A stretch of 64,000 nucleotides of DNA from an uncultured Caldilineaceae bacterium. Its GTDB lineage: Bacteria; Chloroflexota; Anaerolineae; 4572-78; J111. Location: assembly GCA_964398055.1 (NCBI GenBank), contig CAYNLK010000005.1, forward strand, positions 77,875 to 141,874, written 5' to 3'. A program made the translations under genes and the position numbers. The notes below the pieces were generated by a model. It was not told the origin of the DNA. It did no database searches and was given only the letters and a program-made list of their open reading frames with translations. This document shows, one piece after another, positions 37,101 through 55,995 of the stretch. The stretch's first letter is position 1; the number at the start of each line of letters is the position of its first letter.

Positions 37101-38241
37101 GTAAATAGGGGTCGCCGCTGCCGGTATGGGCGCTGCAATTACCGACCGCGACCACCAGTTCGGCGAAACCAGCCTGGGCCTGCCGGGCAAACTCGTGGAC
37201 CAGGGCGGTTTTGCCGCAGCCGGCTTCGCCGGTCACCAGCACGACCTGGCCCTGCCCGGACACGACTGACTCCAGAAAACGGGTCAACCGGGCCAGTTCG
37301 GTCGCACGTCCCACAAAAGGAATATCGTGATCAGCCGGTGGGACTGCCGACGATATAAGAAAAGGAGGCAGAGAGGCAGGGGCGCCGGGAAGCAAGGGAG
37401 CAGGGGGGATAAGGTTGGTTACACCCCTCTGCCCCCCAGCCCCCCTGCTCCTCTGCTCCTCCACCCCTCTGCTCCCCCCGCCAGTGCGAATCCGTTCATA
37501 CAGCGCCGCCGTCTCGGCCGAGGGCGCGACTCCCAACTCCTCGGCCAGAATCCGTTCACACTCCTGGTATTGGCGCAGCGCGGCCGCCCGTTGGCCGGTG
37601 GAGGCGTAGAGTTGCATCAGCCAACGGTGGGCCGGCTCGTGCAGGGGATCGAGCTGCTGCCAGCGGCGGGCATAAGCAAGGGCAGCATGGTAGTCGGCCC
37701 GCGCTGCCAGGCCGGTCACCAGGCGCTCCAGGGCGCCGGCCAGGTCGCGGCGCAGTTTCTCAGCCTCAAAAAAGTGCCACTCATCAAACTCGGGGCTATC
37801 CGGCAAGGTGAAGCCGGCCAGCAAATCAGCCCGGTATAGCGCCGCCGCCTCGGTGAGGGCGGTCAAACAGTCGGCGCAAAGTTCATTGGCCGGGTGGTCG
37901 TGAGCCTGGCCCGCCGCCCGCAGAGTTTGAAATTGTTCAACATCAAGCCACAGGTCGGGGCCGCGTTTAAGCTCGACCGTCTCCCGGTCGGCGGCCAGCC
38001 AATCGCCGGCCAGGGCAATATTGAGGACCGAGAGAGTCCGGCGCAGCGCCGCCCGGGCCCGGGACTGGTCAAGTTCCGGCCAGAACAAGGTCGCCAGGGC
38101 ATCCCGATGGTGGGGTCGAGCGGTTACAGCCAGATAAGCCAGCAAGGCGACGGCTTTGCGGCGATCTAACTCAACCGCCCCGCCCTCCAGCTCAAGCTGG
38201 GGTGTCCCCAGCAAGAATAAACGCAAGCGAGACATCAGCAA
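34171..38241 (-). CDS. Giant cytoplasmic regulator: SARP-type wHTH + BTAD, P-loop STAND ATPase (AAA_16), TPR, C-terminal family-5 solute-binding (OppA/DppA-like) domain
   Basis: The N-terminus LFLLGTPQLELEGGAVELDRRKAVALLAYL plus BTAD (LDPLHEPAHRWLMQLYASTGQRAAALRQYQ). Walker A is VTGEAGCGKTAL, followed by TPR helices. The SBP_bac_5 region is LDPIMASDGISARIIDQLFSGLL...YWSDGVPVTAFDF. There is no signal peptide. Confidence 0.8.
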   Translation of the reverse strand: MLMSRLRLFLLGTPQLELEGGAVELDRRKAVALLAYLAVTARPHHRDALATLFWPELDQSRARAALRRTLSVLNIALAGDWLAADRETVELKRGPDLWLDVEQFQTLRAAGQAHDHPANELCADCLTALTEAAALYRADLLAGFTLPDSPEFDEWHFFEAEKLRRDLAGALERLVTGLAARADYHAALAYARRWQQLDPLHEPAHRWLMQLYASTGQRAAALRQYQECERILAEELGVAPSAETAALYERIRTGGGSRGVEEQRSRGAGGQRGVTNLIPPAPLLPGAPASLPPFLISSAVPPADHDIPFVGRATELARLTRFLESVVSGQGQVVLVTGEAGCGKTALVHEFARQAQAGFAELVVAVGNCSAHTGSGDPYLPFREILNLLAGELETRWRRGLLTQVNAARLWALFPQVAQALVEFGPDLIGTFVPTAPLQVQATKLPPDQRYWLNRLDRPEVDEVTKVAQSDLFEQFSKVLQAVTQTAPLLLVIDDAQWADLASINLLFHFGRQLQASRILLLVTYRPDEVALGRPAGEPGQRERHPLEPVVNELKRTYGNVQIDLSQTPDRDFVEALLDTQPNQLGPEFRAALFKQTQGHPLFTVELLRAMRERGDIIQNEQGDWLAGPALNWAALPARVEAVIEERLGRLDEELRELLTVASVEGEQFTAQVVAQVQAVSERQLLRALSQTLVRRHQLVREEGEVQVNGHFLARFAFSHTLFQQYLYHNLSAGERRLLHRQVAVALEELYAPQVEAVTVQLARHYAQAGQVDKAIDYLLQAGDQARSLYAHQEAADFYQQALAFLKQQGAYDRAARTLMKLGLTYHLGFDFEQARQAYAEGFALWQRAGASRPADLSPALHALRLVGGEPATLDPIMASDGISARIIDQLFSGLLEQSPEMEVIPNIAHRWEVLAAGRQYIFHLRDDMYWSDGVPVTAFDFEYSWKRALQPAIGSPVATALYDIKNARAFHRGELTDPGQVGVQALDPVTLVVELEGPTSYFLQLLTHNATYPLPRHVVEMYGHAWTDPAHLVTNGPFKLESWQPGQVITLARNFDYRGAATGNVARVELRFLAERSAEITKYDADEIDISALWFLTGPEIERVRQRHADDYLAGPMLNTHYIGFNLSRPPFNDRRVRRAFAMAIDKETLAHMVLGGYAFPASGGFVPVGMPGHSPGIGLPYDPDQARLLLAEAGYPGGRQFPALEWLSIPGTDRVMEYLQAQWAENLGVKLTSRAVPEKLFFDKLRQAPAQLFRIGWKADYPDPDNFLRASTFRQETRWSNETYDRLVEQARRLTNQAERMALYRQADRILVEEAVIIPYLYLQRHQLIKPWVSRYPTSPLKASFWKDVVIEPH
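37363..37475. repeat. Imperfect GC-rich palindromic insert inside the regulator's inter-domain linker
   Basis: G-rich arm GGAGGCAGAGAGGCAGGGG...GGGAGCAGGGGGG and C-rich arm CACCCCTCTGCCCCCCAGCCCCCTGCTCCTCTGCTCCTCC around AAGGTTGGTTA. It translates as GGGSRGVEEQRSRGAGGQRGVTNLIPPAPLLPGAPASLPP. Confidence 0.55.
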
Positions 38242-39871: not shown

Positions 39872-40291
39872 ATGATCCCGGATGACACAGAACTTGTGCC
39901 GGAGGAATCAACCGGCTATCGCCCCGGCCCCTTAGCGGTGCTGATCACTTTATTGGTGGTGTTGGCGATGCTGATCACCCTGCTCTGGCCGCTCTTCTAT
40001 ACCGGCTCGGGCCGCCGCCCCACGCCAACGCCGATACCCACCTTTTTGCTGGAGGCGCACGCCCTCCAGGTAATACCTCCGCTCAAAGTGAGCGTAAAAT
40101 CAAAAGAGCCTCTCATCGTAATGAAAGGCTCAATCGGATGCAAGGGGTCTCTTTTGTTAAATTTTGTGGGCGGCGGGTTCTCTCTGGAACCCTCAGCACA
40201 ACCCAATTCCATCTTTTATGTTGTTGGCCCCGCTCCGTCTATGAATATTATACCACAATTCGCGCTGGAAATAAAGGTCGCCTGTGCCTGA
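39872..40291 (+). CDS. Hypothetical single-TM protein
   Basis: RBS GGAGAGAAG and a TM helix LAVLITLLVVLAMLITLLW. The 3' half has lower GC. It overlaps the next gene by 8 nt. Confidence 0.45.
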   Translation: MIPDDTELVPEESTGYRPGPLAVLITLLVVLAMLITLLWPLFYTGSGRRPTPTPIPTFLLEAHALQVIPPLKVSVKSKEPLIVMKGSIGCKGSLLLNFVGGGFSLEPSAQPNSIFYVVGPAPSMNIIPQFALEIKVACA

Positions 40292-43200
40292 TCTAATCGA
40301 AACGCTCGCCAGCTACACCCCCGCCTTAATAACCCGGCGTTTGGCTGTTGACCCGACGCCTATTACGGCCCCCGCGTCGGAACGTTTTCCGGCGGCGGTG
40401 CTGTTTGCCGATATTTCCGGCTTTACCGCCCTGACGGAACGGCTGGCCCAGCGCGGCCCGGCCGGCGCGGAGGAGTTGACCCAGCTCCTGAACACCTATT
40501 TTGACCAACTGATTCAGCTCATCACCGGCTACGGCGGCGATATCGTCAAGTTTGCCGGCGACGCCTTGATTGCCCTTTGGCCGGCGACGAGACAAACTGA
40601 ACTGCCGGCTAAGGCGCAGTTAGCCCTGGCCGTCCACCGGGCCGCCCGCTGTAGCCTGCTAACCCAGCAACGGCTCAACGGTTACGAAGTTGCGCCCGGC
40701 ATTCAACTCTCTCTCAAATTGGCCCTGGGCGCCGGCGAGATTTTAACCATGCACCTGGGCGGCGAGTACGGCCGGTGGGAGTTTCTGGTGACCGGCGATC
40801 CGCTCATTCAGGTTGGCCGGGCCGGGCAACGGATCGGCCCGGGGGAAGTCATTCTCTCTTCGGAAGCCTGGGCGCTGGTCGAAAAGGTTGCCGTCGGCGC
40901 GCCGCTCCTGGCGCCCCGGTCGACCCACGCCACCGCCGCAAACCCTACTTCTGAAGAACGAGCTGATATTTTGCTGAAAGACATTCCCGAGACGCTGCCG
41001 GTTGCCCCCGCCGATGGCCCGCCACTCGATAAACCCAGGCTACCCCCGCAGGCCGAAGCCGGCCTGAAGGCTTACATTCCCGGGGCCATTCTGGCTCGCC
41101 TGGCAGCCCGCCAAACCGGCTGGCTGGCCGAACTGCGCCGGGTAACCATTCTCTTTGTCAACCTGCCTGATCTAACCTACACCATGCCTCTGGAACAGGC
41201 CCAAACGGTGATGCGCACCTTGCAGCAGGCCCTTTACCGCTACGAAGGCAGCATCAACAAACTCAGCGTCGACGAGAAGGGGGTGATGCTGATTGCGGCC
41301 CTGGGCCTGCCCCCCCTGGCCCACGAAGACGACGCTACCCGAGGCGTGCTGGCGGCCCAGGCCATGCAGACCAAATTACTGGAGCTGGGACTGCGCAGCG
41401 CCATTGGCGTCACCACGGGGCGGGCTTTCTGCGGCACTGTTGGCAATGCGCAGCGCCGCGAATACACCATGATCGGCGATGTGGTCAACCTGGCGGCCCG
41501 GCTGATGCAGGCCGCCCCCGCCGACATCCTGTGCGATGCAGCCACCTTTCAGGCGGCCCGGAACACGATGGAGTTTGAACCGCTCCCGGCGATCACAGTC
41601 AAAGGTAAGAGTGAGCCGGTCGCGGTCTATCGACCGCTGGGGCAAAAAGAGTCGGCCCACCGCCACCAAACGATCATGGTCGATCGCCAGGCGGAGCGAA
41701 CCACGCTGGTAGATCGTCTGCAAACCTTGCTCCGAGGTCGCGGCAGCGTGGTCATCATCGAGGGCGAAACCGGCATCGGCAAATCCAGTCTGGTGGCCGA
41801 TTTGCTGGCCCAGGCCGACGTTTTGGACGTTACCAGCCTGATCGGCGGCGGCGACGCCATCGACAAATCAACCCCCTACCACGCCTGGCGACCCGTCTTT
41901 AAACAGTTGTTCAAGCTGGATTCTTTGCCCGACGACCCAGCCCGGCAGCGGGCCTACGTTCTGGCTCAACTGGCCCCGGCCTGGCGCACGCTGGCCCCGC
42001 TCCTCCAGCCGGTTCTACCGCTGGATTGGCCCGACAACGACATCACCAAACAAATGACCGGCAAGATCAGGGCTGATAACACTCACCAATTGTTGGTCAA
42101 CTTGCTGCAACAAGCGGTGCAAGGCGATGGTTCGGCTGCCCGCCCCTATCTCCTGGTGCTGGAAGATACCCACTGGCTTGACTCGGCCTCGTGGACTTTA
42201 ACCCTGCTGGTAGCCCAACAGGTTGCACCCTTGTTGCTGGTCGTTGTCACCAGGCCGCTGGCCGAACCCCGCCCGGCTGAATACAAAGAATTGCAGCAAA
42301 GCCCAACATGCACCTTACTTTCCTTGAACAATCTGTCCCTGCCCGATACAACCGCTCTGGTCAGCCACCGGCTGCAGGTCGACACGCTGCCGGAGTCGCT
42401 GGCCGAACTGATTTACGCCAAAGCCGGGGGGAATCCCTTCTTTTGCGAAGAGTTGGCCCTGGCCCTGCGAGATACCGGTTTTATCACTGTCGCCGATGGT
42501 CAATGCCGGCTCACGGTTAAATCCAGCAGCCTGCAAGATTTGCACCTGCCCGATACCGTGGAAGGAGTCATCACCAGCCGGATCGACCGCCTGACCCCGG
42601 CCCAACAGTTGACCCTGAAGGTAGCCAGCGTGATCGGACGAGCCTTTGAGTACGCCCTGCTGCACGATGTTCACCCCATCGAGGCCGACCGTACCTTTTT
42701 GGCCGATTATCTCGATACGCTCGACCGGCTGGATATTACCGAGCTAGAGTCGCCCGAACCGGACCTGGCTTACATTTTCAAGCAACTGACCACCCAGGAA
42801 GTGGCCTACAATATGCTGCTGTTCGCTCAGCGGCGGGCGCTCCATCAGGCCGTGGCTGAATGGTACGAACGCACGTACGCTGACGATCTATCACCTTTTT
42901 ACTCCATACTGGCTTATCACTGGCAGGCAGCCAACGCCATTCCCAAAGCTATTGACTACCTAGAAAAAGCCGGCCAGCAGGCTTTGCACAACTACGCCAA
43001 TGCCGAAGCGGTGGAGTTTTTCAGCCGGGCGCTGGCCCTGACCGAACCAGGCCCGGCCGAGGTAGACGGGGAGCAGGCTGCGGTTGAGGCGGCCTCGCTG
43101 CGTTTGCGACGGGCCGGTTGGGAAACAAACCTGGGCCAGGCTTACGTTAACTGGGCCAAGCTCAGCGAAGGCCGCGCCCACCTGGAACGGGGCCTGGCGC

Positions 43201-44489
43201 TGCTGGGTTACCCCTTGCCTCAAAGCCGAGCCGGCCTGCTGAGCGGCCTGGCCGGCCAGGTCTGGCGGCAAACCGTGAACCGCTTCTGGCCCGCCCGTGC
43301 CCTGGGGCGGGGCGCGGCCAGCCGGCCTGTTTTGCTGCAAGCCGCCCGGGCTTACGAAGGTCTGACCGCGGTCTACTACTTTGCCAATGAGTCGCTGCTG
43401 ACCCTGTACGCGGCCTTTCGCTCCCTGTCTCTGGCCGAAGCAGCCGGGCCGTCGCCCGAACTGGCTCGAGGCTATGCCTCCGTTGGGGTAATCATCAGCT
43501 TTGTGCCGCTGCATCGCCTGGCCAATCTGTACTGCCGGCGGGCTTTGGAGATGGCCGGCCAGATCGATGATTTGCCGGCGCGGGCCTGGGTCTTCCTGCT
43601 GGCGGGAGTCTATTATGCCGGCGTGGGCCGCTGGGCCGAGGCGGAGACCCTCCTCACCCAAGTCAAGGAAATTTCTGAACGGTTGGGCGACCATAGCCGC
43701 TGGAGCGACGCCGTAGGTAACCTGGGCATGGTCCATTATTTTGAAGGTCACTTTCAACAGAGCGCCGAACTGTATGACCAACTGCTGGTTTCGTCAGAGC
43801 GGCGGAGCGATGCGCACAATCGGGCCTGGGCGCTGCGGGGGCAGGCTTACTGTTTGTTGCCGTGCGGTGAATTTGCCGGAGCGCTAGATCGTCTCCAAAC
43901 CATTCAAACCATCCTCAGCCAGAATCCCGACATTGTGGACGAAGCCTTGCACATCGACGTGTACGGCCTGCTGGCGCTGACCCGCGCCCGCCGCCACGAA
44001 CCGGACCAGGCGCTGGCTGCGGCCAACCAGGCGGTCAGCCTGATCGCCAAAACATCGCCGACCTCGTACCTGTCGCTGCCTGGCTATGGCGGCGTGGTAG
44101 AAACTTATCTGGGTCTCTGGGAACATCACCTGGCGACCGGTGCGCCTCTTCCTCAAAATCTGAAAGCCAATATTCGACAGGCCTGCCGGGCTTTGGGCAG
44201 TTATGCCAGGGTATTCCCGATTGGCCGGCCGCGGGCCTATCTCTGTCGCGGCTCATTCGAATGGCTGTCCGGGCGACCCTATCTGGCCCGCCAACTTTGG
44301 TCCCGGAGCCTGAGCGCGGCCCAGCGGCTGGGGATGCCCTATTCGCAAGGCCGGGCGCTTTACGAACTGGGCCGCCATCTGCCGCCCACCGACCCGGCCC
44401 GCCTGGCCCACTTGAACCGCGCCGGCGAAATTTTCAACCAACTTCAGGCTACTTACGAATTACAGCGAGTGCAGGAAATCTTGAGCTGA
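40284..44489 (+). CDS. Tandem class III nucleotidyl cyclase (CHD x2) - P-loop STAND ATPase (AAA_16) - TPR protein
   Basis: CHD1 is AAVLFADISGFTALTERL...KFAGDALIA. CHD2 is VTILFVNLPDLTY...GTVGNAQRREYTMIGDVVNLAARL. Walker A is IEGETGIGKSSL, and the C-terminal region is helical and TPR-like. The start is GTG. Confidence 0.85.
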   Translation: MPDLIETLASYTPALITRRLAVDPTPITAPASERFPAAVLFADISGFTALTERLAQRGPAGAEELTQLLNTYFDQLIQLITGYGGDIVKFAGDALIALWPATRQTELPAKAQLALAVHRAARCSLLTQQRLNGYEVAPGIQLSLKLALGAGEILTMHLGGEYGRWEFLVTGDPLIQVGRAGQRIGPGEVILSSEAWALVEKVAVGAPLLAPRSTHATAANPTSEERADILLKDIPETLPVAPADGPPLDKPRLPPQAEAGLKAYIPGAILARLAARQTGWLAELRRVTILFVNLPDLTYTMPLEQAQTVMRTLQQALYRYEGSINKLSVDEKGVMLIAALGLPPLAHEDDATRGVLAAQAMQTKLLELGLRSAIGVTTGRAFCGTVGNAQRREYTMIGDVVNLAARLMQAAPADILCDAATFQAARNTMEFEPLPAITVKGKSEPVAVYRPLGQKESAHRHQTIMVDRQAERTTLVDRLQTLLRGRGSVVIIEGETGIGKSSLVADLLAQADVLDVTSLIGGGDAIDKSTPYHAWRPVFKQLFKLDSLPDDPARQRAYVLAQLAPAWRTLAPLLQPVLPLDWPDNDITKQMTGKIRADNTHQLLVNLLQQAVQGDGSAARPYLLVLEDTHWLDSASWTLTLLVAQQVAPLLLVVVTRPLAEPRPAEYKELQQSPTCTLLSLNNLSLPDTTALVSHRLQVDTLPESLAELIYAKAGGNPFFCEELALALRDTGFITVADGQCRLTVKSSSLQDLHLPDTVEGVITSRIDRLTPAQQLTLKVASVIGRAFEYALLHDVHPIEADRTFLADYLDTLDRLDITELESPEPDLAYIFKQLTTQEVAYNMLLFAQRRALHQAVAEWYERTYADDLSPFYSILAYHWQAANAIPKAIDYLEKAGQQALHNYANAEAVEFFSRALALTEPGPAEVDGEQAAVEAASLRLRRAGWETNLGQAYVNWAKLSEGRAHLERGLALLGYPLPQSRAGLLSGLAGQVWRQTVNRFWPARALGRGAASRPVLLQAARAYEGLTAVYYFANESLLTLYAAFRSLSLAEAAGPSPELARGYASVGVIISFVPLHRLANLYCRRALEMAGQIDDLPARAWVFLLAGVYYAGVGRWAEAETLLTQVKEISERLGDHSRWSDAVGNLGMVHYFEGHFQQSAELYDQLLVSSERRSDAHNRAWALRGQAYCLLPCGEFAGALDRLQTIQTILSQNPDIVDEALHIDVYGLLALTRARRHEPDQALAAANQAVSLIAKTSPTSYLSLPGYGGVVETYLGLWEHHLATGAPLPQNLKANIRQACRALGSYARVFPIGRPRAYLCRGSFEWLSGRPYLARQLWSRSLSAAQRLGMPYSQGRALYELGRHLPPTDPARLAHLNRAGEIFNQLQATYELQRVQEILS

Positions 44490-44490
44490 G

Positions 44491-45432
44491 ATGGATGAGC
44501 CGCAACTGAGCCAGATTATTACCGCTGCCGTGACCCGTCTCCGGGCCGAGTTGAGCCAGGCCGCGCCCTATCTGGCCGGGCATGTGGAGCCGTGGCTGCT
44601 CCAACTGGCCGGCAGCAACCAGCCTGCCGCCTATTTCAAACATCCCCTGGCTTTTCCTGCACTCTTATTGCCCTGGTGGCTGGAGCAAACCATCCACCCC
44701 CAACCCAACCCAAATTTTCAGGCCGACCTGGCTTACTCCACCATTAACGGCTACTACTACATCCGCCTGATCGACAACCTGATGGACGGTCACGCCACGG
44801 TCGAGCTGGCTCTGCTGCCGGCGCTGGGCTTCTTTCACAGCCAATTCCAGCTTATTTACCAGCGCTATTTTGCGGCGGACCAGCCCTTTTGGGATTTCTT
44901 CATCACCACCTGGCTCCAGTCGGCCGAGGTTACACTGCAAGACGCCGGGCTGACCGACATCGACGAGGCGACCTTCAAGCAGGTGACGGCCAAGAAAGTA
45001 GGCGCGGCCAAGATTCCGCTGGCGGCGGTCTGTTACCGGTTTGACCGGCCTGCACTCATTTCACCTTGGTCCGAACTCGTCGATCAACTGGGCGGCTGGC
45101 ATCAATTCTTGAATGATCTCTTGAGCTGGCATCGCGACCACGCCCGCCAGACCTGCACCTACTTCCTGTCTGAGGCGGAGCGACAGCGGGTCAGCGATGA
45201 GCCGATGGTGTGTTGGGTCGCTCGCGAGGGCTTTGACTGGGCTATGGGCCGGCTGCAAGAATGGTTAGCAGAGCTGCAAGCCCTGGCGATGGAACTGCAC
45301 AGCCCTCCCTTGAACGCCTACCTGGTTGAGCGTGGCCGGATGCTGCAACAGCAGCAAGCGGAAGTGGCGGAGGGATTGGCTCAACTGACCAGGGTGCTCA
45401 ATTTGAATTGGGACTTACCGGGCCGGTCATAG
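44491..45432 (+). CDS. All-helical protein resembling trans-polyprenyl diphosphate synthase / class I isoprenoid synthase fold, with degenerate Asp-rich motifs
   Basis: YYYIRLIDNLMDGH resembles the FARM region (LIHDDxxD), AKKVGAAKIPLAAV resembles the KTAxL region, and HQFLNDLLSWHRD resembles SARM (FQxxDDxxD) or an NSE-like motif. The start lies 1 nt after the cyclase stop. It is paralogous to the N-half of 48373..50355. Confidence 0.45.
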   Translation: MDEPQLSQIITAAVTRLRAELSQAAPYLAGHVEPWLLQLAGSNQPAAYFKHPLAFPALLLPWWLEQTIHPQPNPNFQADLAYSTINGYYYIRLIDNLMDGHATVELALLPALGFFHSQFQLIYQRYFAADQPFWDFFITTWLQSAEVTLQDAGLTDIDEATFKQVTAKKVGAAKIPLAAVCYRFDRPALISPWSELVDQLGGWHQFLNDLLSWHRDHARQTCTYFLSEAERQRVSDEPMVCWVAREGFDWAMGRLQEWLAELQALAMELHSPPLNAYLVERGRMLQQQQAEVAEGLAQLTRVLNLNWDLPGRS

Positions 45433-45536
45433 AACATCACATAGGCAAATCATTCATCCTTTTGCTACCTTTGAGGTATAATGAATGTGGTAGGATGTGA
45501 TAGGATGTGATAGTACTTAAGAATTGAGAAACGGTG

Positions 45537-46295
45537 ATGGAAAGCTTACAGTTGACTGACAAAACCTTTCCAAAAGACATTTTGGCGGATATTCGGGCGA
45601 TTGAACAAATCCTGCTTCAGTATGGAGCAGAAAAAGTCATCTTATATGGATCAATGGCCAGAGGAGATTATCATGCCAATTCAGATATTGATATCTGTGT
45701 AGAGGGATTACCCCATCAAAATTATTTTCGAGCTTTCGCTGCATGTATGATGCAGGCTCAACGCCCGATGAGCGTTCTTGATTTTTCCGATACTTATGGT
45801 TACCTCAGAGAGAGAATCTTGGAAGAGGGGAAAATAATTGCTATGAGTATAAATAGATTGAGAGAAGAAATTGAGTTTGGTTTAGAAAACCTGGAAAAAA
45901 TCTATCTGAATATCTCAAAGTTTTCTCAACAAGATACCTCAAAAGATATTGTGATAGCTGCATTAACTTATGAATGCTTTGGATACTATAATGCCATTGA
46001 ACATCTGATTATCAGATTGCTGAAATATCTTTCAATTGAGATACCAACTGGACCATTCTCTCATAGAGACATCTTGCGAACTTTCTATGCCGTAGCAGAT
46101 GACAGAGGATTCAAAGTTGATGAGGAAAGTTCTACCGTTATAGAAAATTTAATGGCCTTCCGTCATATTGCTACCAAAATCTACAGTTTTTTGGTAGACT
46201 GGGAAAAACTTGAAGTGATTATTGATGACATAAAGGGGAGTCACAATAATATCAAACAACTTTTCACTGCTATTCTAAATATGGTAAACAATTGA
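45537..46295 (+). CDS. Fused minimal nucleotidyltransferase (MNT) - HEPN-like protein on a low-GC islet
   Basis: NTase motif ILYGSMARGDYHANSDIDI. The C-terminal helical domain has FRHIATKIY where HEPN/DUF86 proteins carry RNxxxHxY. Local GC is about 40% against about 60% in the flanks. Confidence 0.65.
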   Translation: MESLQLTDKTFPKDILADIRAIEQILLQYGAEKVILYGSMARGDYHANSDIDICVEGLPHQNYFRAFAACMMQAQRPMSVLDFSDTYGYLRERILEEGKIIAMSINRLREEIEFGLENLEKIYLNISKFSQQDTSKDIVIAALTYECFGYYNAIEHLIIRLLKYLSIEIPTGPFSHRDILRTFYAVADDRGFKVDEESSTVIENLMAFRHIATKIYSFLVDWEKLEVIIDDIKGSHNNIKQLFTAILNMVNN

Positions 46296-46298
46296 AGG

Positions 46299-47969
46299 AT
46301 GATCAACCCAAATAGTGAGGTGAATCTGTTCGAACTGGGCCAACACCATTTTAACCGGTTCAAGCATGAGTTCGCTGCCTACGGCATCGAGACCGACCCG
46401 GCCCTGGAGCTGCGCCGGGGCAGCGGCATGTTGTGTTATTACAGCCTGGAGGATGGCCACATCTACCTGGCGGTGCCGGACCTGACCAGCCCGGTCGGCA
46501 AACTCCAGGCGCTGTTTCTGCGCTCTTTGCTCGGTTGCGCCAGCAATGAGGAGCTGCTGCGCTTCTTTGAGTTGTTCATTCCGCACGTAATTGCCCACGA
46601 GTTGGCTCACCACTACCGCCATCGCTATGGCCAGTTTGGACAAAGCATGTATGAGGAAGAGCAAATTGCCAATAAGTTAGCCGTGGCCGTGGTCAAGCAT
46701 CGCCTTTCGCCGGCAGCCAAAGCGCAGGCCAGAGAGTTTCTGCGGCGAGCTATGGAGGCCCTCTCGGCCAAGATGGCCGCTCAAAGCATCGCCGTTGACT
46801 CCTACTACAGCGTGCTGCACGCCCTCAACGTCTCCGGCCAGATCGGCGTGGCCGATTTTGAAAATGTCGAACTCATTAAAACGATGTTCGGGGTGTCGGA
46901 AGATGAGTTACTCAGAGGCAGCGGCCAACTATCGGCCGATTTGATCGAACGCCTGGAGCAGCGGCCTAACCTGATCCAGGAAATTGACGAGCAATATACT
47001 TCGGACCAGATCAAATATATTTACTACCACGTCGGCTGGTTGTACCTGGATTTGACCAGCCGGGAAACGGAGTATGTGGATGAGTTTGCCCGCGACTACC
47101 TGGGCCTGGGCCAGAAATTTCTGCCGGCCCCTCAAGCCGACCCTGACCCCGGCGTTGCCGCCATTCAAGCCTGCTTCAAGGCTTATCAAGAGGCGCAGTT
47201 CCTCTCTGAGGCGGCAGCCCGCTATTTTTACAAAAGGTACCGGGCCTTATTGCTGGCCAAATTGAAATCGGTTCAACTGCCGGTGGCGGCCCATACGGCC
47301 AGCCTGCAACGCGAGGCCAGCTTAATTCTGGAGAACTGGAGCGGGCATGAGTCCGACACGTTGAACTATCTGGCCGAGTTGGCCCCGCCGGCGCTGCGCC
47401 GCTTGTTCCCTCGCAGTATCGCCGCCTACCTGGAACCTGAGCTGGACGTGCTGGCCGCCTTACCCACCGCCACCGACCGGCGGTTATGGCAGCAGGCCCG
47501 GGGCCTGGTTGAGGACGAGGCGGCTCAAAATACCCTGTACCGCCTGGCCATCCTTGACCAATCCGATATTTATCGCCCCTTGCCGGCCGGGCTGATGCTG
47601 GAATTGGCCCAGCTCTTTTGCCAGGCGCATTACGCCGCCGGCGAAACCGTCATCTGGCAGAATGAGCGGAACGACGACGTTTACTTTTTGATCGACGGCC
47701 AGTTGGAGGTCTTGGTTACCCGTAATGGCCAGGTTGAGCGGATTGACCTGATTGAGCCGGGTCAAATGTTTGGTGAAATCGCCTTCTTCACCGAGGACCC
47801 CCGCTACGCCACCGTGCGCGCTGTGGCCCCGTCGCGCTGTTTTGTGTTGACCGACGCCGATTTGCAGATCTTTGCCTTCAAACACCCGGCGATCTTGATG
47901 CAGATGGCCGGCGCGCTGGCCAAACGGTTGGCCAATCTGTATCAAACCAGCCGCAAAGAGACGGTCTAA
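46299..47969 (+). CDS. HExxH (putative zinc metallopeptidase-like) domain protein with C-terminal cyclic-nucleotide-binding (CAP_ED) domain
   Basis: HVIAHELAHHYRH with a downstream EEEQIAN. The cNMP domain is VIWQNERNDDVYFLIDGQLEV...GQMFGEIAFFTEDPRYATVRAV. Confidence 0.7.
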   Translation: MINPNSEVNLFELGQHHFNRFKHEFAAYGIETDPALELRRGSGMLCYYSLEDGHIYLAVPDLTSPVGKLQALFLRSLLGCASNEELLRFFELFIPHVIAHELAHHYRHRYGQFGQSMYEEEQIANKLAVAVVKHRLSPAAKAQAREFLRRAMEALSAKMAAQSIAVDSYYSVLHALNVSGQIGVADFENVELIKTMFGVSEDELLRGSGQLSADLIERLEQRPNLIQEIDEQYTSDQIKYIYYHVGWLYLDLTSRETEYVDEFARDYLGLGQKFLPAPQADPDPGVAAIQACFKAYQEAQFLSEAAARYFYKRYRALLLAKLKSVQLPVAAHTASLQREASLILENWSGHESDTLNYLAELAPPALRRLFPRSIAAYLEPELDVLAALPTATDRRLWQQARGLVEDEAAQNTLYRLAILDQSDIYRPLPAGLMLELAQLFCQAHYAAGETVIWQNERNDDVYFLIDGQLEVLVTRNGQVERIDLIEPGQMFGEIAFFTEDPRYATVRAVAPSRCFVLTDADLQIFAFKHPAILMQMAGALAKRLANLYQTSRKETV

Positions 47970-47985
47970 GGTTACTTTTGCCCCA

Positions 47986-48014
47986 TTGCGAATCATCCGG
48001 CCGCTGTGATATAT
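47986..48014 (+). promoter_or_regulatory. Sigma-70-type promoter candidate for the small peptide gene
   Basis: TTGCGA-N17-ATATAT (or N18-TATATA), upstream of the GGAGGG RBS. Confidence 0.4.
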
Positions 48015-48068
48015 ATGAGTTGTAAATCTAATTTATAACCAACTGTATCTAGCACGGAGGGAACCAAA

Positions 48069-48272
48069 ATGGGTGCCGATTTACAACTGCTGGTAGGAAA
48101 AATTTTATCTGATCAGGATTTCGCCAAAGCGCTGGCCGAAAACCCCCAGGATACGCTGGCCCGGGCCGGCATCGAGCCGACCATCGACCTGTTGGAAGCC
48201 CTGGAGGGCGTCGACGCCGAGGCGCTGCAAAAGCTGGCGGCCAATTTTGGGGATCAGCAAGCTGCCCTGTAG
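48069..48272 (+). CDS. 67-aa acidic helical peptide resembling Nif11/NHLP-type RiPP leader regions
   Basis: Strong RBS GGAGGG. The sequence LLVGKILSDQDFAKALAENPQDTLARAGIEPT is like the xLxDPxFRxxLLxDPxxxL leader pattern. It has its own terminator. Confidence 0.6.
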   Translation: MGADLQLLVGKILSDQDFAKALAENPQDTLARAGIEPTIDLLEALEGVDAEALQKLAANFGDQQAAL

Positions 48273-48307
48273 TAAGCCAGGCTCTGCCAAAATTCAGGTT
48301 AAACGCT

Positions 48308-48348
48308 ACCTGGGTTATGCTCTGCAGGTAGCGTTTTTTTTGTTGCTG
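48308..48348 (+). terminator. Strong intrinsic terminator
   Basis: AAACGCTACCTG (48308..48319) and CAGGTAGCGTTT (48332..48343) form the stem, followed by TTTTT. Confidence 0.75.
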
Positions 48349-48372
48349 GATTGAAGGGTTTTAGGGTCTGGT

Positions 48373-50355
48373 TTGACTGAAATGAGACTAACCGAGCAAT
48401 ACCAACCCTTACGAGATCAAATCTGGCCGGCAGTAGACCAATTTTTCGACAGCCTGCCGCCGCCGCTCTTCCGGCAGAGCGTTCTACTCAAAAACAATCT
48501 GGCCACGCTCTACAGCGACACCGGCCAATTCAAGGATATCCTGCGCCGGGAGCAGGACCTGCCCCTGCTGTACCTCCATCTCTGGCTATTGGATGATCTC
48601 GGCTGCCCCCACCCGGCGATGCGCGCCAACCTGGCCCAAGATCTTTTTCTGGCGATACTATTCACCTTTGGCGTGATCCATACCCAGCACAGTATCCTCG
48701 ACGACAGCACCAATTTCGATCAGACCTACCTGTATCTGGCCCAAACGCTGATCCAACAGAGCGACATCCACCTGGCCAAGCTCTTTGCCGGCGACTCGCC
48801 CTTCTGGCAGCACCGGCAGGCATATTGGGCTGAATACAGCGCGGCAACTTTGACGACCGCCGACGGCAGACTACCGACCGCCGAGTCACTGTCACGAAGG
48901 TTGGCCTTCACCAAAATACCGGTTGCGGCCGTAGCCCTCAGCACCGGGCAAGAATCGAACCTGTCTCAGCTTGTCACGATGATGGACCGGCTCAACTTTG
49001 TGTGGCAAACGCTGCACGACTTTGCCACCCTGCGGCGAGATTTGGCCCAGCGTCGCCCGAGCTATCCCATTTACCGCACCCTGCTGGCCGCCGGTATCGA
49101 CCCGCTCGAACCGGTCGCGCCGGAGCGAGTGCTGGGCGCGCTGGTGTTGAGCGGCGCCGTGACCGAGATTTGCGACGACTGCGTTGCCAACCTGGCCGAG
49201 GGTCGGGCCATCGCCGAGGCGCTCCAGCTACCCAACCTCCTCGAATATTTTGGCGTCGTTGAACGGTTGGTCCAGCAGGTCAGTGTCTTATTCAATGTTG
49301 ATCAAAAGCAGCCAGGTTCTTCGACCAGTCCCTCCCGGCGACCGTTGTTCGCGCCTTACGCCGAGCCGCTGGCCAGCGTCATTCACATGGCCAAGGGTTA
49401 CTTGCTGGCCGACCCCACTTTCCGGGAAAGTTGGGAAGTGCAGCGCCGCGGCGCCTTTGGCCGGCCGGAGCTGACGGCCAAAGCCTTCCCGGCCGGCCTG
49501 ATCGTCGAGATTTTGGCCCGGCACGGCCACAACGTCTCGGCCATGGTGGCGTGGATTTTTGAGACACTGCGGGACACCAATTACCGCTATTACGACTTCC
49601 CGGACATGCCACCCGACGCCGACGACCTGGGGCTGCTGCTGCGGCTCTTCCCGTACGCCGAACAGCCGGCCAGCCATCGCTCCAACCTGGAAATTCCGCT
49701 GGGCTGGCTGGCCGAGAACATCACCGAATCTGGCGAGATGCCAGTCTGGTTCACCCGCCAGCGAGATTTCGATCAAACCAAAATGCACTTTGTGGCGTTA
49801 TGGGGAGAAAGCTGTGTAACGGTGGAAACCAACCTGCTGCTGGGGCTACTTGCCTACGACCCGGTCCATTACCGTAGCATGATCGAACAATCGGCCCGGA
49901 GCATCCTGGCCCGCTGGCTCAACCGGGGGCTGAGCGCCGCCAGTCACTACACGCCGCTCTATTCGCTCTGGCTGGGGTTGGAATTGATCGCCAAACTGGT
50001 CGCAAGCCCGCTTCAGACCGAGCTGCAACCTCAGCTTGACCGGGTCGCCCGGCGACTGGCCGGCCGGCTGGCCGCTGAAACCAAACGGGGTTTCATCTCG
50101 CCCCAAGAGGCCGCTTTCTTGACCCTGGCCTGCCTCTCGCCCGATCTACCGGCCACGGCCAAAAATCTGTTCGATCCTGATTGGATAACCATCCTCTTGA
50201 AAGCCCAACGCTACGACGGCAGTTGGGCAGCCGAGCCGCTCTACGGCACCCCCACTCGCGGCGAGTTGGCTGCCTGGTACAGCAGTCGTCCGGTGACGAC
50301 CGCGTTTTGTTACCACGCGCTTAAAACCTATTCGAATACCCAACTATCAACTTGA
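48373..50355 (+). CDS. Two-domain protein: polyprenyl-synthase-like (class I isoprenoid fold) N-half fused to an alpha/alpha-toroid prenyltransferase/terpene-cyclase-like C-half with DxDD and QW motifs
   Basis: The N-half has FGVIHTQHSILDDSTNFD (compare IEFIHTATLLHDDVVD of polyprenyl synthases) and WQTLHDFATLRRD. The linker is QKQPGSSTSPSRRP. The C-half has PPDADDLGLLL (DxDD, about 49615..49626) and LLKAQRYDGSW (QW motif). The start (TTG 48373 or ATG 48382) is uncertain. Confidence 0.5.
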   Translation: MTEMRLTEQYQPLRDQIWPAVDQFFDSLPPPLFRQSVLLKNNLATLYSDTGQFKDILRREQDLPLLYLHLWLLDDLGCPHPAMRANLAQDLFLAILFTFGVIHTQHSILDDSTNFDQTYLYLAQTLIQQSDIHLAKLFAGDSPFWQHRQAYWAEYSAATLTTADGRLPTAESLSRRLAFTKIPVAAVALSTGQESNLSQLVTMMDRLNFVWQTLHDFATLRRDLAQRRPSYPIYRTLLAAGIDPLEPVAPERVLGALVLSGAVTEICDDCVANLAEGRAIAEALQLPNLLEYFGVVERLVQQVSVLFNVDQKQPGSSTSPSRRPLFAPYAEPLASVIHMAKGYLLADPTFRESWEVQRRGAFGRPELTAKAFPAGLIVEILARHGHNVSAMVAWIFETLRDTNYRYYDFPDMPPDADDLGLLLRLFPYAEQPASHRSNLEIPLGWLAENITESGEMPVWFTRQRDFDQTKMHFVALWGESCVTVETNLLLGLLAYDPVHYRSMIEQSARSILARWLNRGLSAASHYTPLYSLWLGLELIAKLVASPLQTELQPQLDRVARRLAGRLAAETKRGFISPQEAAFLTLACLSPDLPATAKNLFDPDWITILLKAQRYDGSWAAEPLYGTPTRGELAAWYSSRPVTTAFCYHALKTYSNTQLST

Positions 50356-51138
50356 GGCAGCCTGATCCAGCAGGTCGGCCAGGGTCGCGGCCGTCTGCTT
50401 GGCATAGAACCAAACCACCCCCGGCTTGGTTTCAAACAGCACGGCCAGCAAAAACTGCTTGTTCACTTCACAGGCGTAGAGATGCTGATCGGTCCCTTCG
50501 TGGTAGCTGGATTTAAAGATGGAACGGCTGCCGAGCATGTTGGCTAATTCCGTTGCCGCGGCAAAGTTTTTGGCCACAAACAAGCCAATACTGGCCACTT
50601 CCACATCGCTGCCCTGGCCAACGACCTGAACCGGCTCACCCTCGGCGCTGAGCAAGAGCACCAACCGGGCGTTAGTATTGATCCGTAAAATCTCCAATTG
50701 CTCTCGCATGGCCTGGCCGGAAGGCTTAACCCCAGGTGAGCCAGTCGAGTCCTTGTCTTGGCGGGCCAGGCGAATCGTCTTTTGAATAACCCGGTGGATT
50801 TCGTCGATGGTAAATGGTTTATCCAGGTAGCCATCGATGCCAACTATTTTGGAGGTATCACGCAGCCGGCTGGTGCCATAAGCCGTCATCAAAACCACCT
50901 GAGTATCAGGCGAAATCTTATGAATGGCCGTCGCCAGGTCGACGCCGGTGATTTTGGGCATCATGTAATCGGCCACCACCAGGTCAAAGGGTTGTTCTTC
51001 CAACTGCTGCAAAGCCTCGGTGCTATCCATAGCTGTGTGAATCTCATAATCTGCCCCCAATCGACTGAGGCTATTCTCCAACATGTAAAGAACCGTTTGA
51101 TCATCGTCCACAATCAAGACACGTTTACGGCCTAGCAT
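50347..51138 (-). CDS. Response regulator: REC domain + Roadblock/LC7 (MglB-like) domain
   Basis: REC motifs are VLIVDDD, DLVVADYMMP and YLDKPF. The C-terminal LVLLLSAEGEPVQVVG...FLLAVLFETKPGVVWFYAKQ matches the Roadblock pattern. I prefer the ATG at 51138. The 3' end overlaps the convergent gene by 9 nt. Confidence 0.7.
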   Translation of the reverse strand: MLGRKRVLIVDDDQTVLYMLENSLSRLGADYEIHTAMDSTEALQQLEEQPFDLVVADYMMPKITGVDLATAIHKISPDTQVVLMTAYGTSRLRDTSKIVGIDGYLDKPFTIDEIHRVIQKTIRLARQDKDSTGSPGVKPSGQAMREQLEILRINTNARLVLLLSAEGEPVQVVGQGSDVEVASIGLFVAKNFAAATELANMLGSRSIFKSSYHEGTDQHLYACEVNKQFLLAVLFETKPGVVWFYAKQTAATLADLLDQAASS

Positions 51139-51191
51139 TTCATTACCCAAACTTTCCGGCTGACAATCACCTGCGCCAATACCCGATAACC

Positions 51192-52064
51192 TTAGCCCTG
51201 GCCGTTGGTTTTGTCACCCAACAAGTCATCGAACTCCTCAGCCATGGTCATAGCTTTGTCGTCTACAGCCTCAGTTTCGGCTCGCTGTCCGAGCAGGCGG
51301 GCCAGGTTGGTCGCGGTCTGTTTGGTATAAAACCAAACCGTACCGGGTTTACCGGTTGAGCCAAACAGCACCGCTAACAAAAATTCGCCGTTGACGTCAT
51401 AGGCATAGATATTATACTTGCTGCCTTCGTGATAAATCGATCTGAAGACAGAAGCATTGTCATCGAAGAGGGTGGTCAATTTAGAAACGGTCAAGAAATT
51501 GGCCGCCACGAACATAGCCAACCGGCTAACTCTGGTATGGTCAACTTGTCCCACCTCTTGCAGGAGCTGTCCGGCTGAGTTCAATAGAAGGACACAATGG
51601 CTGCCGGTTTGGTTGTGCAACAACTTGAGCTGTTCATACACCGCCTGGCTCTGGGCAGGGGATTCACCTGGTTCCTGGTTGGCCGCCGGACGGGTTTGCG
51701 CCATAATGCGCTGCACCACCTCCAAAATTTCGGGCACCGAAAACGGCTTGCCCAGGTAACCACCTAACTGCATCGTCTCAACTCTATCCCGCAGACCGAT
51801 GGTATCGTAGGCGCTCATCAGCACCACCTGGGTGTCCGGTGAGCGTTCTCGGATTTCCTGGGCCAATTCCAGGCCGGTCATGCCGGGCATCATGTAGTCG
51901 GTGATGACCAAATCATACTTGCGCTGTTGGATCAGAGCCAACGCCTCAACCCCATCCACTGCCGTACTGACCTTGAAGTTGGGGCCCAGGCGCTTGATGC
52001 TGTGGGTCAAAAGGAAGACGATATCTCGGGCGTCATCGACGATCAGGACATGTTTATCATTCAT
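51192..52064 (-). CDS. Response regulator: REC domain + Roadblock/LC7 (MglB-like) domain (paralogue)
   Basis: REC motifs are VLIVDDA, DLVITDYMMPG and YLGKPF. The C-terminal VLLLNSAGQLLQEVG...FLLAVLFGSTGKPGTVWFYTKQ matches the Roadblock pattern. Confidence 0.7.
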   Translation of the reverse strand: MNDKHVLIVDDARDIVFLLTHSIKRLGPNFKVSTAVDGVEALALIQQRKYDLVITDYMMPGMTGLELAQEIRERSPDTQVVLMSAYDTIGLRDRVETMQLGGYLGKPFSVPEILEVVQRIMAQTRPAANQEPGESPAQSQAVYEQLKLLHNQTGSHCVLLLNSAGQLLQEVGQVDHTRVSRLAMFVAANFLTVSKLTTLFDDNASVFRSIYHEGSKYNIYAYDVNGEFLLAVLFGSTGKPGTVWFYTKQTATNLARLLGQRAETEAVDDKAMTMAEEFDDLLGDKTNGQG

Positions 52065-52254: not shown

Positions 52255-52310
52255 TTTGAGATTTGCAATTTGCAATTTGCAGGTTGAAATTTGAGATTTG
52301 AGATTTGCAA
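52255..52310. repeat. Eight tandem AT-rich heptamers
   Basis: TTTGAGA TTTGCAA TTTGCAA TTTGCAG GTTGAAA TTTGAGA TTTGAGA TTTGCAA, located in the divergent intergenic region. Confidence 0.85.
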
Positions 52311-52355
52311 CTCTTGACCGGCAACAACTATCCAGCCAAACCAAAACAGTGGTCG

Positions 52356-55119: not shown

Positions 55120-55995
55120 ATGATTATGGGCAACAAATTGACCGAACTTTTGCAGAAATTATTTGGCAGCCAGAGTGAATCAGGCCAAACGGCGCCGCTA
55201 ACAACGGACGAGGCCAAACTGGTCAACTCGCTCCGCAAGTTGTCGCTGCTGCAAGATATCCCGGAGCGCATTCTGGTCAAAATTGCCCGGCAGGCCAGCT
55301 TACGCGAGCTAACCAAAGGGCAGCTCCTGGTCCACCAGGGCGATCCCAGCGACTCGCTCTTTATCATCCGCACCGGCTGGATCAAGATTGTAGCCGAAGG
55401 CAGCGGCGGTGAAGAGGTGGTGCTCAACCAGTGCGGGCCTGGCCAGGTCATCGGCGAGATGTCCCTGCTGGACCAAAAACCCCGCTCCAACACAATGGTG
55501 GCGCTCAGCCCGGCCAACCTGTTGGAAATCAAATATGAAACCGTGGTTGAGGCGCTCACTGAATATCCCCAACTGGCCCTGGCCTTTCTACGCGATATGT
55601 CGGACCGGCTGCGCTTTGCCAATACCTACATCGAAGAGACCATCATCTGGTCCCAACATATCGCCACGGGTGACTATGATTTTGTCCAGAATCAGGTGGC
55701 CGAAACCCAATCGACGATCGTCGATATCAACCTGTCCGACCAGGCCCGGGCCGGCGCTTTCCTGTCGGCCTTCTTCAAGATGGTCGAGGGGGTCAAAAAG
55801 CGGGAAGAAGAGTTGAAACGGCAGCTTCACCAACTGACCATTGAAATCGATGAGGTCAAACGCCAACAGGCCGTAGCCGAGCTGACCGAAACGGAATTTT
55901 TTGAGCAGTTGCAAGAGTCGGCCCGCAAGCTGCGCGAGGCGCGTAGCTTGAAAAAGCATCCACCATCTGAGACCGGCGATACCACGGACAGTTGA
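55120..55995 (+). CDS. Cyclic-nucleotide-binding (CAP_ED) domain protein with C-terminal coiled coil
   Basis: LFIIRTGWIKIV...GQVIGEMSLLDQKPRSNTMVAL, then the coiled coil EELKRQLHQLTIEIDEVKRQQ. Confidence 0.75.
   Translation: MIMGNKLTELLQKLFGSQSESGQTAPLTTDEAKLVNSLRKLSLLQDIPERILVKIARQASLRELTKGQLLVHQGDPSDSLFIIRTGWIKIVAEGSGGEEVVLNQCGPGQVIGEMSLLDQKPRSNTMVALSPANLLEIKYETVVEALTEYPQLALAFLRDMSDRLRFANTYIEETIIWSQHIATGDYDFVQNQVAETQSTIVDINLSDQARAGAFLSAFFKMVEGVKKREEELKRQLHQLTIEIDEVKRQQAVAELTETEFFEQLQESARKLREARSLKKHPPSETGDTTDS

Follow-up and report, generated by a model that had tools for sequence, protein, structure and literature searches.

A conserved five-gene cassette of Chloroflexota with a predicted cyclic-nucleotide signaling pair, an NHLP-clan peptide and isoprenoid-synthase-fold proteins

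The closest described counterparts of the locus analyzed here are the PC maturases ChrPC and NctPC (Hubrich et al., Chem 2024). These proteins combine a P domain similar to trans-type isoprenyl diphosphate synthases (trans-IDS) with an MstE-like C domain, and ChrPC, using C10-C20 donors, prenylates a Trp in a ribosomal peptide before it cyclizes the chain (PMC13290415). All characterized trans-IDS-like peptide prenyltransferases (ComQ, the P domain of ChrPC, and PalQ) target Trp (PMC13290415). Here we describe a conserved cassette of five genes from an uncultured Caldilineaceae bacterium. It lies in a stretch of 64,000 nt (GCA_964398055.1, contig CAYNLK010000005.1, positions 77,875-141,874 of the forward strand), hereafter the window, to which coordinates refer unless another locus is named. 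The genes are g1 (cyclase-STAND protein), g2 (prenyl-fold protein), g4 (HExxH protein with a cyclic-nucleotide-binding, or CNB, domain), g5 (peptide), and g6 (prenyl-fold domain joined to a terpene cyclase).

Other components of the cassette also have described relatives. The beta-only clade of class II cyclases has been reported from Chloroflexi as well (PMC12414744). In ECOD, Frankia_peptide, Nif11, ComX, and the alpha subunit of nitrile hydratase form one LigA-like fold group (PMC12353581). In Pseudomonas sp. Os17, the gene for the peptide Os1348 neighbors that of an HExxH protein, and loss of the peptide lowers antibiotic activity (PMC7726476).

Compared by architecture with the PC maturases, g6 has a similar layout, a trans-IDS-like N-terminal domain followed by a predicted beta-only class II cyclase domain, and adjoins a small peptide of the NHLP/Nif11 clan, g5. 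The differences are several. The peptide g5 has no Trp (0 of 36 orthologues), which is the sole known acceptor of this class of enzymes, and no variable core; g6 has a canonical DxDD motif and is accompanied by an extra stand-alone paralogue, g2; and the cassette is obligately joined to a candidate CNB-zincin protein and a predicted STAND adenylyl cyclase. An earlier sequence-only reading of the window knew of no described system with this combination. For the g6-type fusion this does not hold, given the precedent of ChrPC and NctPC (PMC13290415), but three features of the cassette appear to be new: the Trp-less, fully conserved peptide, the second stand-alone prenyl-fold enzyme beside a P-C fusion, and the putative adenylyl cyclase and CNB-zincin pair hard-wired to the cassette.

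The set g1-g2-g4-g5-g6 is a conserved functional unit. Homologues of g6 (131 matches) and g4 (253 matches) come nearly all from metagenome-assembled genomes (MAGs) of Chloroflexota, where they are annotated as hypothetical or 'cNMP-binding' (binding cyclic nucleotide monophosphates). On four long contigs (L001, L002, L004, and L005), whose g6 or g4 relatives are 36-56% identical, all five genes recur in unchanged order but with unlike flanks: the cyclase-STAND protein, a protein of ~310 aa, a CNB protein of ~555 aa, a Frankia_peptide protein of ~67 aa, and a protein of ~620-680 aa. One genome per GTDB species was then scanned, and relatives of g4, either full-length or partial, turned up at 37 loci. 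The carriers belong to Caldilineaceae, Anaerolineales, Ardenticatenales, Herpetosiphonaceae, and Promineifilaceae, with one bin labeled Myxococcales. Searches of these loci by tblastn with the window proteins found the canonical order in 16 species-level loci. The co-occurrence of these genes, on which the sequence-only reading depended, is thus confirmed: at least 16 further species-level genomes of Chloroflexota show an identical order. Because the cluster is syntenic in so many genomes, it is well beyond chance.

Linkage within the unit is uneven. Counting only loci with enough flank to judge, and using tblastn with all window proteins, g4 is accompanied by g5 in 31 of 34 loci, by g2 in 30 of 34, by g6 in 22 of 27, and by g1 in 20 of 28. 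The last gene was found adjoining g2 in 20 of 28 assessable loci, and g5 adjoins g6 in most loci. The best conserved gene of the cassette is g4 (55-85% identity). In one Anaerolineales MAG (GCA_020634935.1) a g6 homologue stands alone on contig 19 (L003), whereas g2-g4-g5 lie on contig 2 (L016) without g1 or g6. The system's tightest core therefore appears to be the g2-g4-g5 triad.

Some variant clusters are rearranged and carry additional genes. In locus L034 (2371-9623), three tandem g5 paralogues are followed by genes for a cytochrome P450 and an S-adenosylmethionine (SAM) methyltransferase, then g6, g2, and g4, with no g1. Locus L042 (4061-15629) contains an ABC ATPase, an open reading frame (ORF) of 277 aa, g6, g4, g2, and again three tandem g5 paralogues; a g1-like gene (28% identical) is convergent on the opposite strand. 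In locus L037 (CAZQPP010000192, 7986-9872), g4 and g5 are fused in frame into one ORF of 628 aa with the HExxH domain, then a CNB domain (aa 439-516) and finally a Frankia_peptide domain (aa 570-608). The fusion has g2 upstream and MgtE downstream, with no g6 within 2 kb downstream. This Myxococcales-labeled MAG is the only carrier without a Chloroflexota label, and the contig could be mis-binned. Finally, an exhaustive profile search revealed a fusion of a methyltransferase with g6 (P0315, 952 aa). The P450, the SAM methyltransferase, the ABC ATPase, and the methyltransferase-g6 fusion are hallmarks of natural-product gene clusters. Together with the tandem peptides, the P450, methyltransferase, and ABC ATPase genes argue for biosynthesis rather than defense.

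All six plus-strand ORFs listed by the sequence-only reading are present in the window at the coordinates it gave; five of them constitute the cassette, which does not include the sixth, a gene inserted between g2 and g4. The terminal gene, g6 (48373-50355, +), is read as 660 aa from a TTG at 48373 in the ORF listing, whereas public gene calls for the identical protein start at the ATG at 48382 (657 aa, MRLTEQ...), and the latter is the likely true start. As single sequences, neither g2 nor g6 had any match in Pfam, NCBIfam, or the PDB, and only profile searches and structure prediction were informative for them. An AlphaFold2 (AF2) model, for which 33 aligned sequences of the g6 family were used (pLDDT 90.1, pTM 0.86), has two domains, and this architecture is kept in all 33 aligned homologues.

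The N-terminal domain (aa 1-306; 48373-49290, +) is all-helical and resembles trans-isoprenyl diphosphate synthases. In Foldseek searches of the PDB it matched the polyprenyl synthases 4lob, 2azj, 4jyx, and 3oyr, as well as farnesyl diphosphate synthases (E 0.015-0.06, TMt 0.60-0.70). Its conserved positions are W71-L-L-D74-D75, D110...F115-D116, Q...D216-xx-T-xxx-D223, and Y231-P232. Among these, the Asp-rich motifs, (E/H)106 with D110 and D116 and then D216-xx-T-xxx-D223, are weaker than in g2. Both g2 and g6 lack a PF00348 match and the DDxxD pairs of canonical trans-IDS, with which they have only the fold in common.

The C-terminal domain (aa 332-660; 49366-50355, +) can be described, by its predicted fold and its DxDD and QW motifs, as a single-barrel class II terpene cyclase. 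The top Foldseek matches of aa 332-659 are 8pak and 8paj, single-barrel cyclases of ~345 aa from Cystobacter and Archangium (E 3e-7, TMt 0.67-0.69); further matches are drimenyl diphosphate synthase 7xr7, drimenol synthase 9mhs, and ent-copalyl diphosphate synthase 5bp8. The g6 family profile also reached squalene-hopene cyclase (E 0.0026) and drimenol synthase (E 0.004) in the PDB through the QW-motif stretch. In class II terpene cyclases, the DxDD motif serves as the general acid when the terminal double bond is protonated. In g6 this motif is P-P-D415-A-D417-D418-L-G-L-L-L-R-L, with DADD encoded by nt 49615-49626; across the 33 sequences it is either invariant or conserved to at least 90%, D415, D417, and D418 included. 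The QW-type motif Q612-R-Y-D615-G616-S-W618 is invariant. Because g6 carries one barrel only, in place of the beta-gamma didomain of class II cyclases, its C-terminal domain was assigned to the beta-only (MstE-like) subgroup. MstE and other beta-only cyclases, including 8pak and 8paj, similarly consist of a single alpha/alpha barrel of ~320 aa and are the best structural matches of this domain. The differences are that MstE has a DxD motif (PMC12414744) where g6 has DADD, and that the g6 barrel is fused to an isoprenoid-synthase-fold domain.

Thus, the model, the structural matches, and the motif conservation agree with the sequence-only reading, which had recognized in g6 an alpha/alpha-toroid with DxDD and QW motifs. 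A LanC-like interpretation of the barrel was rejected: no LanC structures were among the matches, and the motifs are those of DxDD/QW proteins. The cyclase domain is also found in other contexts. Many stand-alone proteins of ~310-345 aa, among them P0340, P0347, and P0367 (309-345 aa), match the g6 cyclase domain only (E 1e-60 to 1e-85), and the exhaustive profile search also found proteins of ~500-570 aa whose N-terminal part is different and unassigned. Cluster look-ups for distant relatives of g6 returned hardly any names. One full-length member of the g6 family, P0377, comes from an Acidimicrobiia MAG.

The stand-alone protein g2 (44491-45432, +; 313 aa), assigned to the isoprenoid-synthase fold by homology to the g6 N-terminal domain, is a paralogue of that domain. 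The two proteins match each other in BLASTP (E 8e-9), and hhalign of the g2 alignment (A4) against the g6 family (A1) gave a probability of 98.1% and E 9.6e-14 over 244 columns. The polyprenyl-synthase-like fold proposed earlier for g2 and the N-terminal half of g6 is therefore borne out by Foldseek on the g6 model and by hhalign of g2. Conservation was assessed in sets of 16 and 33 g2 orthologues. The motif D95-N-x-M-D99-G, which resembles the first Asp-rich motif (FARM) and occupies its site in isoprenoid synthases, has D95, M98, and D99 invariant in both sets and N96 at least 90% conserved; E105 is at least 90% conserved in the 33-sequence set. A second motif, N208-D209-xxx-W213-xx-D216, is similar to NSE/DTE motifs (SARM-like, that is, in the manner of the second Asp-rich motif), with D209, W213, and D216 invariant and N208 at least 90% conserved. 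R92, K169, and Q205 are invariant as well. A profile search for relatives of g2 returned only orthologues from the same cassette and no outgroup.

The peptide g5 (48069-48272, +; 67 aa) passes the NCBIfam model NF038399 'Os1348 family NHLP clan' (57.7 bits, cut-off 40) and weakly matches PF14407 Frankia_peptide (30.1 bits, under the 48-bit cut-off). These matches place it in the Os1348/Frankia_peptide (NHLP-clan) family of LigA-like three-helix peptides. Its 36 orthologues are 63-72 aa long, contain neither Trp nor Cys, and are conserved end to end, up to a C-terminal tail F60-G61-(D/E)-(N/Q)-(Q/K)-A-A-(V/L). Because of this end-to-end conservation, a folded small protein or a partner subunit fits g5 as well as a precursor does.

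The expression signals of g5 are partly those proposed from the sequence, namely its own promoter, a strong ribosome-binding site, and a terminator. The ribosome-binding site, GGAGG, lies upstream of the gene, and an intrinsic terminator or attenuator follows it directly (48301-48341, +), with a perfect 12-bp stem and a T8 run (-23.6 kcal/mol, z -2.26). The sigma-70 scan missed this element owing to its 12-nt loop, and RNA folding confirmed it. The promoter was not recovered, as a sigma-70 consensus scan of the g4-g5 spacer was empty. A hairpin with a T-run follows g5 in ~15 of 36 related loci, with differing stem sequences. Such hairpins, the g4-g5 fusion in L037, and the tandem triplication in L034 and L042 tie g5 to the enzymes of the cassette.

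Two described peptide systems are similar to g5 and its neighbors. The first is ComQ/ComX of Bacillus, in which a polyprenyl-synthase-fold enzyme of ~300 aa, comparable to g2, is encoded beside a small peptide. The ComX leader and Frankia_peptide/NHLP share one LigA-like fold group (PMC12353581), and the short C-terminal peptide that constitutes the modified product is a further similarity. However, ComX is prenylated on Trp, which g5 lacks; ComQXPA has no cyclase domain, and a putative cAMP circuit takes the place of ComP/ComA in the cassette. The second is the Os1348 cluster (OS3), in which the peptide is of the same family, NF038399, and likewise has an HExxH-motif protein as its neighbor. 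A GNAT protein, an HExxH protein of the TIGR04267 type, and a SagB-like dehydrogenase are its partners in that cluster (PMC7726476), whereas g4 has no TIGR04267 match; moreover, isoprenoid-fold enzymes, a CNB domain, and a cyclase are all absent there. An assignment of g4 to TIGR04267/alpha-ketoglutarate-HExxH hydroxylases was accordingly rejected, with no match at E<0.1.

The remaining two genes form the signaling part of the cassette. The sensor cyclase g1 (40284-44489, +; 1401 aa; ORF, Pfam, and NCBIfam evidence) contains two cyclase homology domains, CHD1 at ~aa 35-200 (nt 40386-40883) and CHD2 at aa 286-444 (nt 41139-41615), seen in Pfam as two Guanylate_cyc stretches. Next comes a P-loop ATPase of the STAND type (AAA_16, aa 468-653, nt 41685-42242), and TPR repeats lie in the C-terminal part (~aa 1083-1256, nt 43530-44051). 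Among 21 orthologues, CHD1 retains the invariant metal-binding residues D43 and D93 and has no Asn/Arg pair, while CHD2 has lost the first Asp and keeps K326, T395, N402, and R406. Taken across both domains, the catalytic residues expected of a class III adenylyl cyclase are conserved in at least 19 of the 21. This pattern is that of a C1/C2-like pseudo-heterodimer, a class III cyclase whose single active site is split between the domains as in mammalian C1/C2. A Lys/Thr specificity pair in class III cyclases indicates ATP as the substrate. Because g1 has such a pair, K326/T395, its product is probably cAMP.

The stop codon of g1 (TGA, 44487-44489) is separated from the ATG of g2 (44491) by 1 nt, exactly as the sequence-only reading had noted, and in the window and other loci these genes are 1 nt apart or overlapping. 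Among described families, g1 is similar in its cyclase-ATPase region to the TOMM kinase/cyclase fusion TIGR03903 (E 4e-48). However, it reaches 164 bits against a cut-off of 706 and has a second cyclase domain in place of the kinase.

The presumed receptor, g4 (46299-47969, +; 556 aa; Pfam and AF2 model), carries a C-terminal CNB domain at aa 444-523 (nt 47628-47867; Pfam cNMP_binding, 7e-20) with an invariant phosphate-binding cassette FGE..FF....R.ATV. This domain resembles the CNB structures of PKA, PKG, CRP, and PycTIR, with 8jsk (PycTIR) as the top structural match. In the AF2 model (pLDDT 82.6) the N-terminal 140 residues comprise a small beta-sheet, then a helix with H100-E101-xx-H104-H105 at its end and another that begins with E120-E121, while the middle part (aa ~140-420) is a helical domain. 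The HELAHH motif (aa 100-105, nt 46596-46613) is invariant, as are E120 and E121 of the E120-E121-Q122 segment on the next helix. Weak matches to Peptidase_M78/IrrE were obtained for 5 of 15 family members (best E 0.0085), along with hints of YgjP. Our best inference is that the N-terminal domain is a zincin-like metallopeptidase with a gluzincin pattern.

The pairing of a cyclase with a cyclic-nucleotide receptor protein, noticed earlier in this one sequence, is a conserved feature of the cassette. A CNB domain is also common to g4 and the family cyc_nuc_ocin (TIGR03896), although g4 scores 25 bits against a cut-off of 161. The names of the two NCBIfam models, TIGR03903 and TIGR03896, which refer to RiPP or bacteriocin settings, suggest that cyclic-nucleotide signaling around NHLP-type peptides is recurrent; the text of Haft 2010 contains no discussion of cyclic nucleotides, and a literature search for further RiPP (ribosomally made, post-translationally modified peptide) clusters linked to cyclic nucleotides or terpene cyclases found nothing more.

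The gene inserted in the window cassette, at 45534-46295 (+), encodes a 253-aa MNT-HEPN (nucleotidyltransferase-HepT) fusion, with the Pfam domains HepT-like_2, Polbeta, and NTP_transf_2 and a match to NCBIfam MntA; it also matches the PADLOC candidate system PDC-S09. It occupies an 866-bp gap between g2 and g4, has a GC content of 0.37-0.45 against ~0.55-0.65 around it, and comes after a direct repeat, the short sequence gtaggatgtgataggatgtgatag, at ~45487-45510. In tblastn searches this gene had no match in any of 36-42 related loci, and we therefore consider it a recent insertion peculiar to this genome. Its absence elsewhere and its low GC content substantiate the earlier suggestion of a later insertion; the 'islet' of that suggestion is, however, one fused gene rather than two.

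Gene content, folds, conservation of catalytic motifs, synteny, a gene fusion, and tandem peptides are the observations that an interpretation has to accommodate. From them we infer the chemical steps, which nucleotide, prenyl donor, and acceptor residue take part, and in what sequence the events occur. Tentatively, and at somewhat less than even probability, we favor a cassette for the cAMP-gated biosynthesis of a ribosomal-peptide/isoprenoid hybrid. In this scheme, the TPR sensor arm of g1, a STAND ATPase, would control the cyclase head, converting a cue into cAMP, which would occupy the C-terminal CNB domain of g4. The zincin-like metallopeptidase of g4 would bind g5, as suggested by the fusion of both in one genome, and would cleave or release it only when the CNB domain is occupied. 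The peptide itself would be an NHLP-clan precursor or scaffold, possibly made in excess, given the terminator directly behind its gene. Then g2 and/or the N-terminal domain of g6 might ionize a C15-C20 prenyl diphosphate via the Asp-rich motifs and move the chain to g5, with the conserved tail FG(D/E)(N/Q)(Q/K)AA(V/L) as the likeliest acceptor. The DxDD cyclase domain of g6 would protonate the terminal double bond and cyclize the attached chain, following the prenyltransferase-then-cyclase logic of ChrPC. The scheme in its most specific form comprises a post-translational relay from a STAND sensor through cAMP to a CNB-gated zincin, and a ribosomal peptide bearing a cyclized isoprenoid on a non-Trp acceptor (such as the conserved C-terminal tail or its carboxylate). 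Taken in full, this version is rather unlikely.

Several observations weigh against the hybrid-peptide interpretation. First, g5 has no Trp (and no Cys), whereas every characterized trans-IDS-like peptide prenyltransferase targets Trp, and it is conserved over its full length instead of consisting of a conserved leader and a variable core. Second, the first Asp-rich motif of the g6 N-terminal domain is degenerate, the window copy having H106 where the family consensus is E. Third, the zincin assignment of g4 draws on the HExxH+E pattern, predicted secondary structure, and the weak M78 matches; the profile of its N-terminal domain had no match in the PDB, and Foldseek of the full g4 model gave CNB-domain matches only. 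Fourth, the linkage is incomplete, as g6 is unlinked in one genome (L003 vs L016) and g1 is absent near several variants (L034, L035, L037). Finally, neither an exporter nor a prenyl diphosphate synthase is consistently encoded within the cassette.

An alternative explanation is a small-molecule terpenoid or meroterpenoid pathway, in which g2 (class I-like) and g6 (an alpha-beta bifunctional enzyme) have as their substrate a free prenyl diphosphate or a free acceptor such as an amino acid or indole. Here g6 would combine class II cyclization with class I-type ionization or transfer. The peptide would not be a substrate but a LigA-like partner or inhibitor, and the cAMP-gated g4, by cleaving or binding it, would turn the enzymes on. 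We regard this as a real possibility, if a rather unlikely one. It accounts for the absence of Trp and Cys from g5 and for the conservation of g5 throughout, in the manner of a folded protein; indeed, Os1348 was crystallized as a dimeric small protein (PMC7726476), and some LigA-like domains are subunits of enzymes or have a regulatory role (PMC12353581). The trans-IDS-like Ord1 prenylates free tryptophan (PMC13290415), the NSE-like motif NDxxxWxxD of g2 resembles class I terpene synthases, the P450 and methyltransferase of L034 are classic terpenoid-tailoring enzymes, and stand-alone beta-only relatives of the g6 C-terminal domain are common. On the other hand, the tightest linkage is g2-g4-g5 (30-31 of 34 loci), which includes the peptide, and the triplication of g5 with a terminator behind it is typical of RiPP precursors. 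The P-C fusion architecture has so far been tied to peptide substrates (PMC13290415). The sequence-only reading had offered both a terpenoid pathway and a peptide-prenylating system; peptide prenylation, which has a direct precedent in ChrPC, is the somewhat more probable of the two.

A Pycsar/STAND-type defense or stress module is improbable. In such a module g1 would sense an invader with its TPR arm and make a cyclic nucleotide that activates g4 as an effector protease, and the helical proteins and g5, instead of being biosynthetic, would assist the effector as cofactors or act as a toxin/antitoxin-like pair. As in Pycsar, a class III-type cyclase gene stands beside a gene for a protein with a PycTIR-like CNB domain. 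PADLOC PycC models match the g1 cyclase domain (E 1.6e-19) and PycTIR CNB models match g4 (E ~1e-16), whose best structural CNB match is also PycTIR (8jsk). STAND ATPases with TPR sensors are frequent in defense systems, the window locus has acquired an MNT-HEPN gene of the toxin-antitoxin type, and L005 adjoins a type I restriction-modification system. However, PADLOC recognizes only the generic class III cyclase and CNB domains, while g2, g5, and g6 match nothing. Pycsar consists of two genes, a pyrimidine cyclase and a TIR or transmembrane effector, whereas the cassette has five, with a zincin-like CNB partner, a 1401-aa STAND-TPR cyclase with an adenylyl-type K326/T395 pair, and three further genes of biosynthetic type. 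The Pycsar analogy drawn by the sequence-only reading thus holds at the level of generic domains and not for the gene number, the effector, or the cyclase type. The strong conservation of the DxDD and Asp-rich motifs would be unexpected for non-enzymatic cofactors, and the variants with a P450, a methyltransferase, an ABC ATPase, and several peptide copies also argue against defense. Finally, the flanks are mostly housekeeping genes rather than defense islands, and the cassette is vertically widespread in one phylum (g4 at 55-85% identity). Mere adjacency without a functional unit, for which one could cite the absence or unlinking of g6 or g1 in a minority of genomes, is effectively refuted by the same order in at least 16 species-level genomes with different flanks, by the 1-nt or overlapping g1-g2 junction, and by the g4-g5 and methyltransferase-g6 fusions.

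The cassette is bounded in the window by genes that do not belong to it. Upstream, at 34171-38241 (-), a 1356-aa protein joins a BTAD transcriptional-activator domain to a STAND ATPase (AAA_16) and TPR repeats and has an SBP_bac_5 solute-binding domain at its C-terminus, an unusual sensor-regulator fusion. Downstream, two tandem REC-Roadblock/LC7 response regulators (50347-52064, -) are convergent with g6, with a 9-nt overlap. Beyond them lie genes for an ILEI-domain protein of 917 aa (52305-55058, +), a 291-aa CNB protein (55120-55995, +), and a DUF2079 membrane protein (56044-58686, +), each conserved only in the near-identical contigs L083 and L084. The REC-Roadblock genes and the second CNB gene had been mentioned in the sequence-only reading as lying just downstream. 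They recur only in those two contigs and not in distant carriers, and the flanks differ in every distant locus, which places these genes outside the conserved unit.

In summary, public records name g1, g2, g4, and g6 only as 'hypothetical' or 'cNMP-binding', and the fold and motif assignments given here are the first functional hypotheses for these four large proteins. The cassette is a compact five-gene system across Chloroflexota that can be tested by heterologous expression, and it provides a clean case of the long-noted association of cyclic-nucleotide signaling proteins with NHLP-type peptide clusters. Peptides with cyclized terpenes were first described in 2024 and so far on Trp only. 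The cassette would extend this chemistry to a hard-to-culture filamentous phylum, to the Os1348/Frankia_peptide family, and to a non-Trp acceptor. If the most specific form of the proposed hybrid-peptide scheme is true, it would represent a new acceptor chemistry for peptide prenyltransferases of the IDS fold and the first second-messenger-gated step of RiPP maturation, and its product might act as a Chloroflexota-wide signaling lipopeptide.

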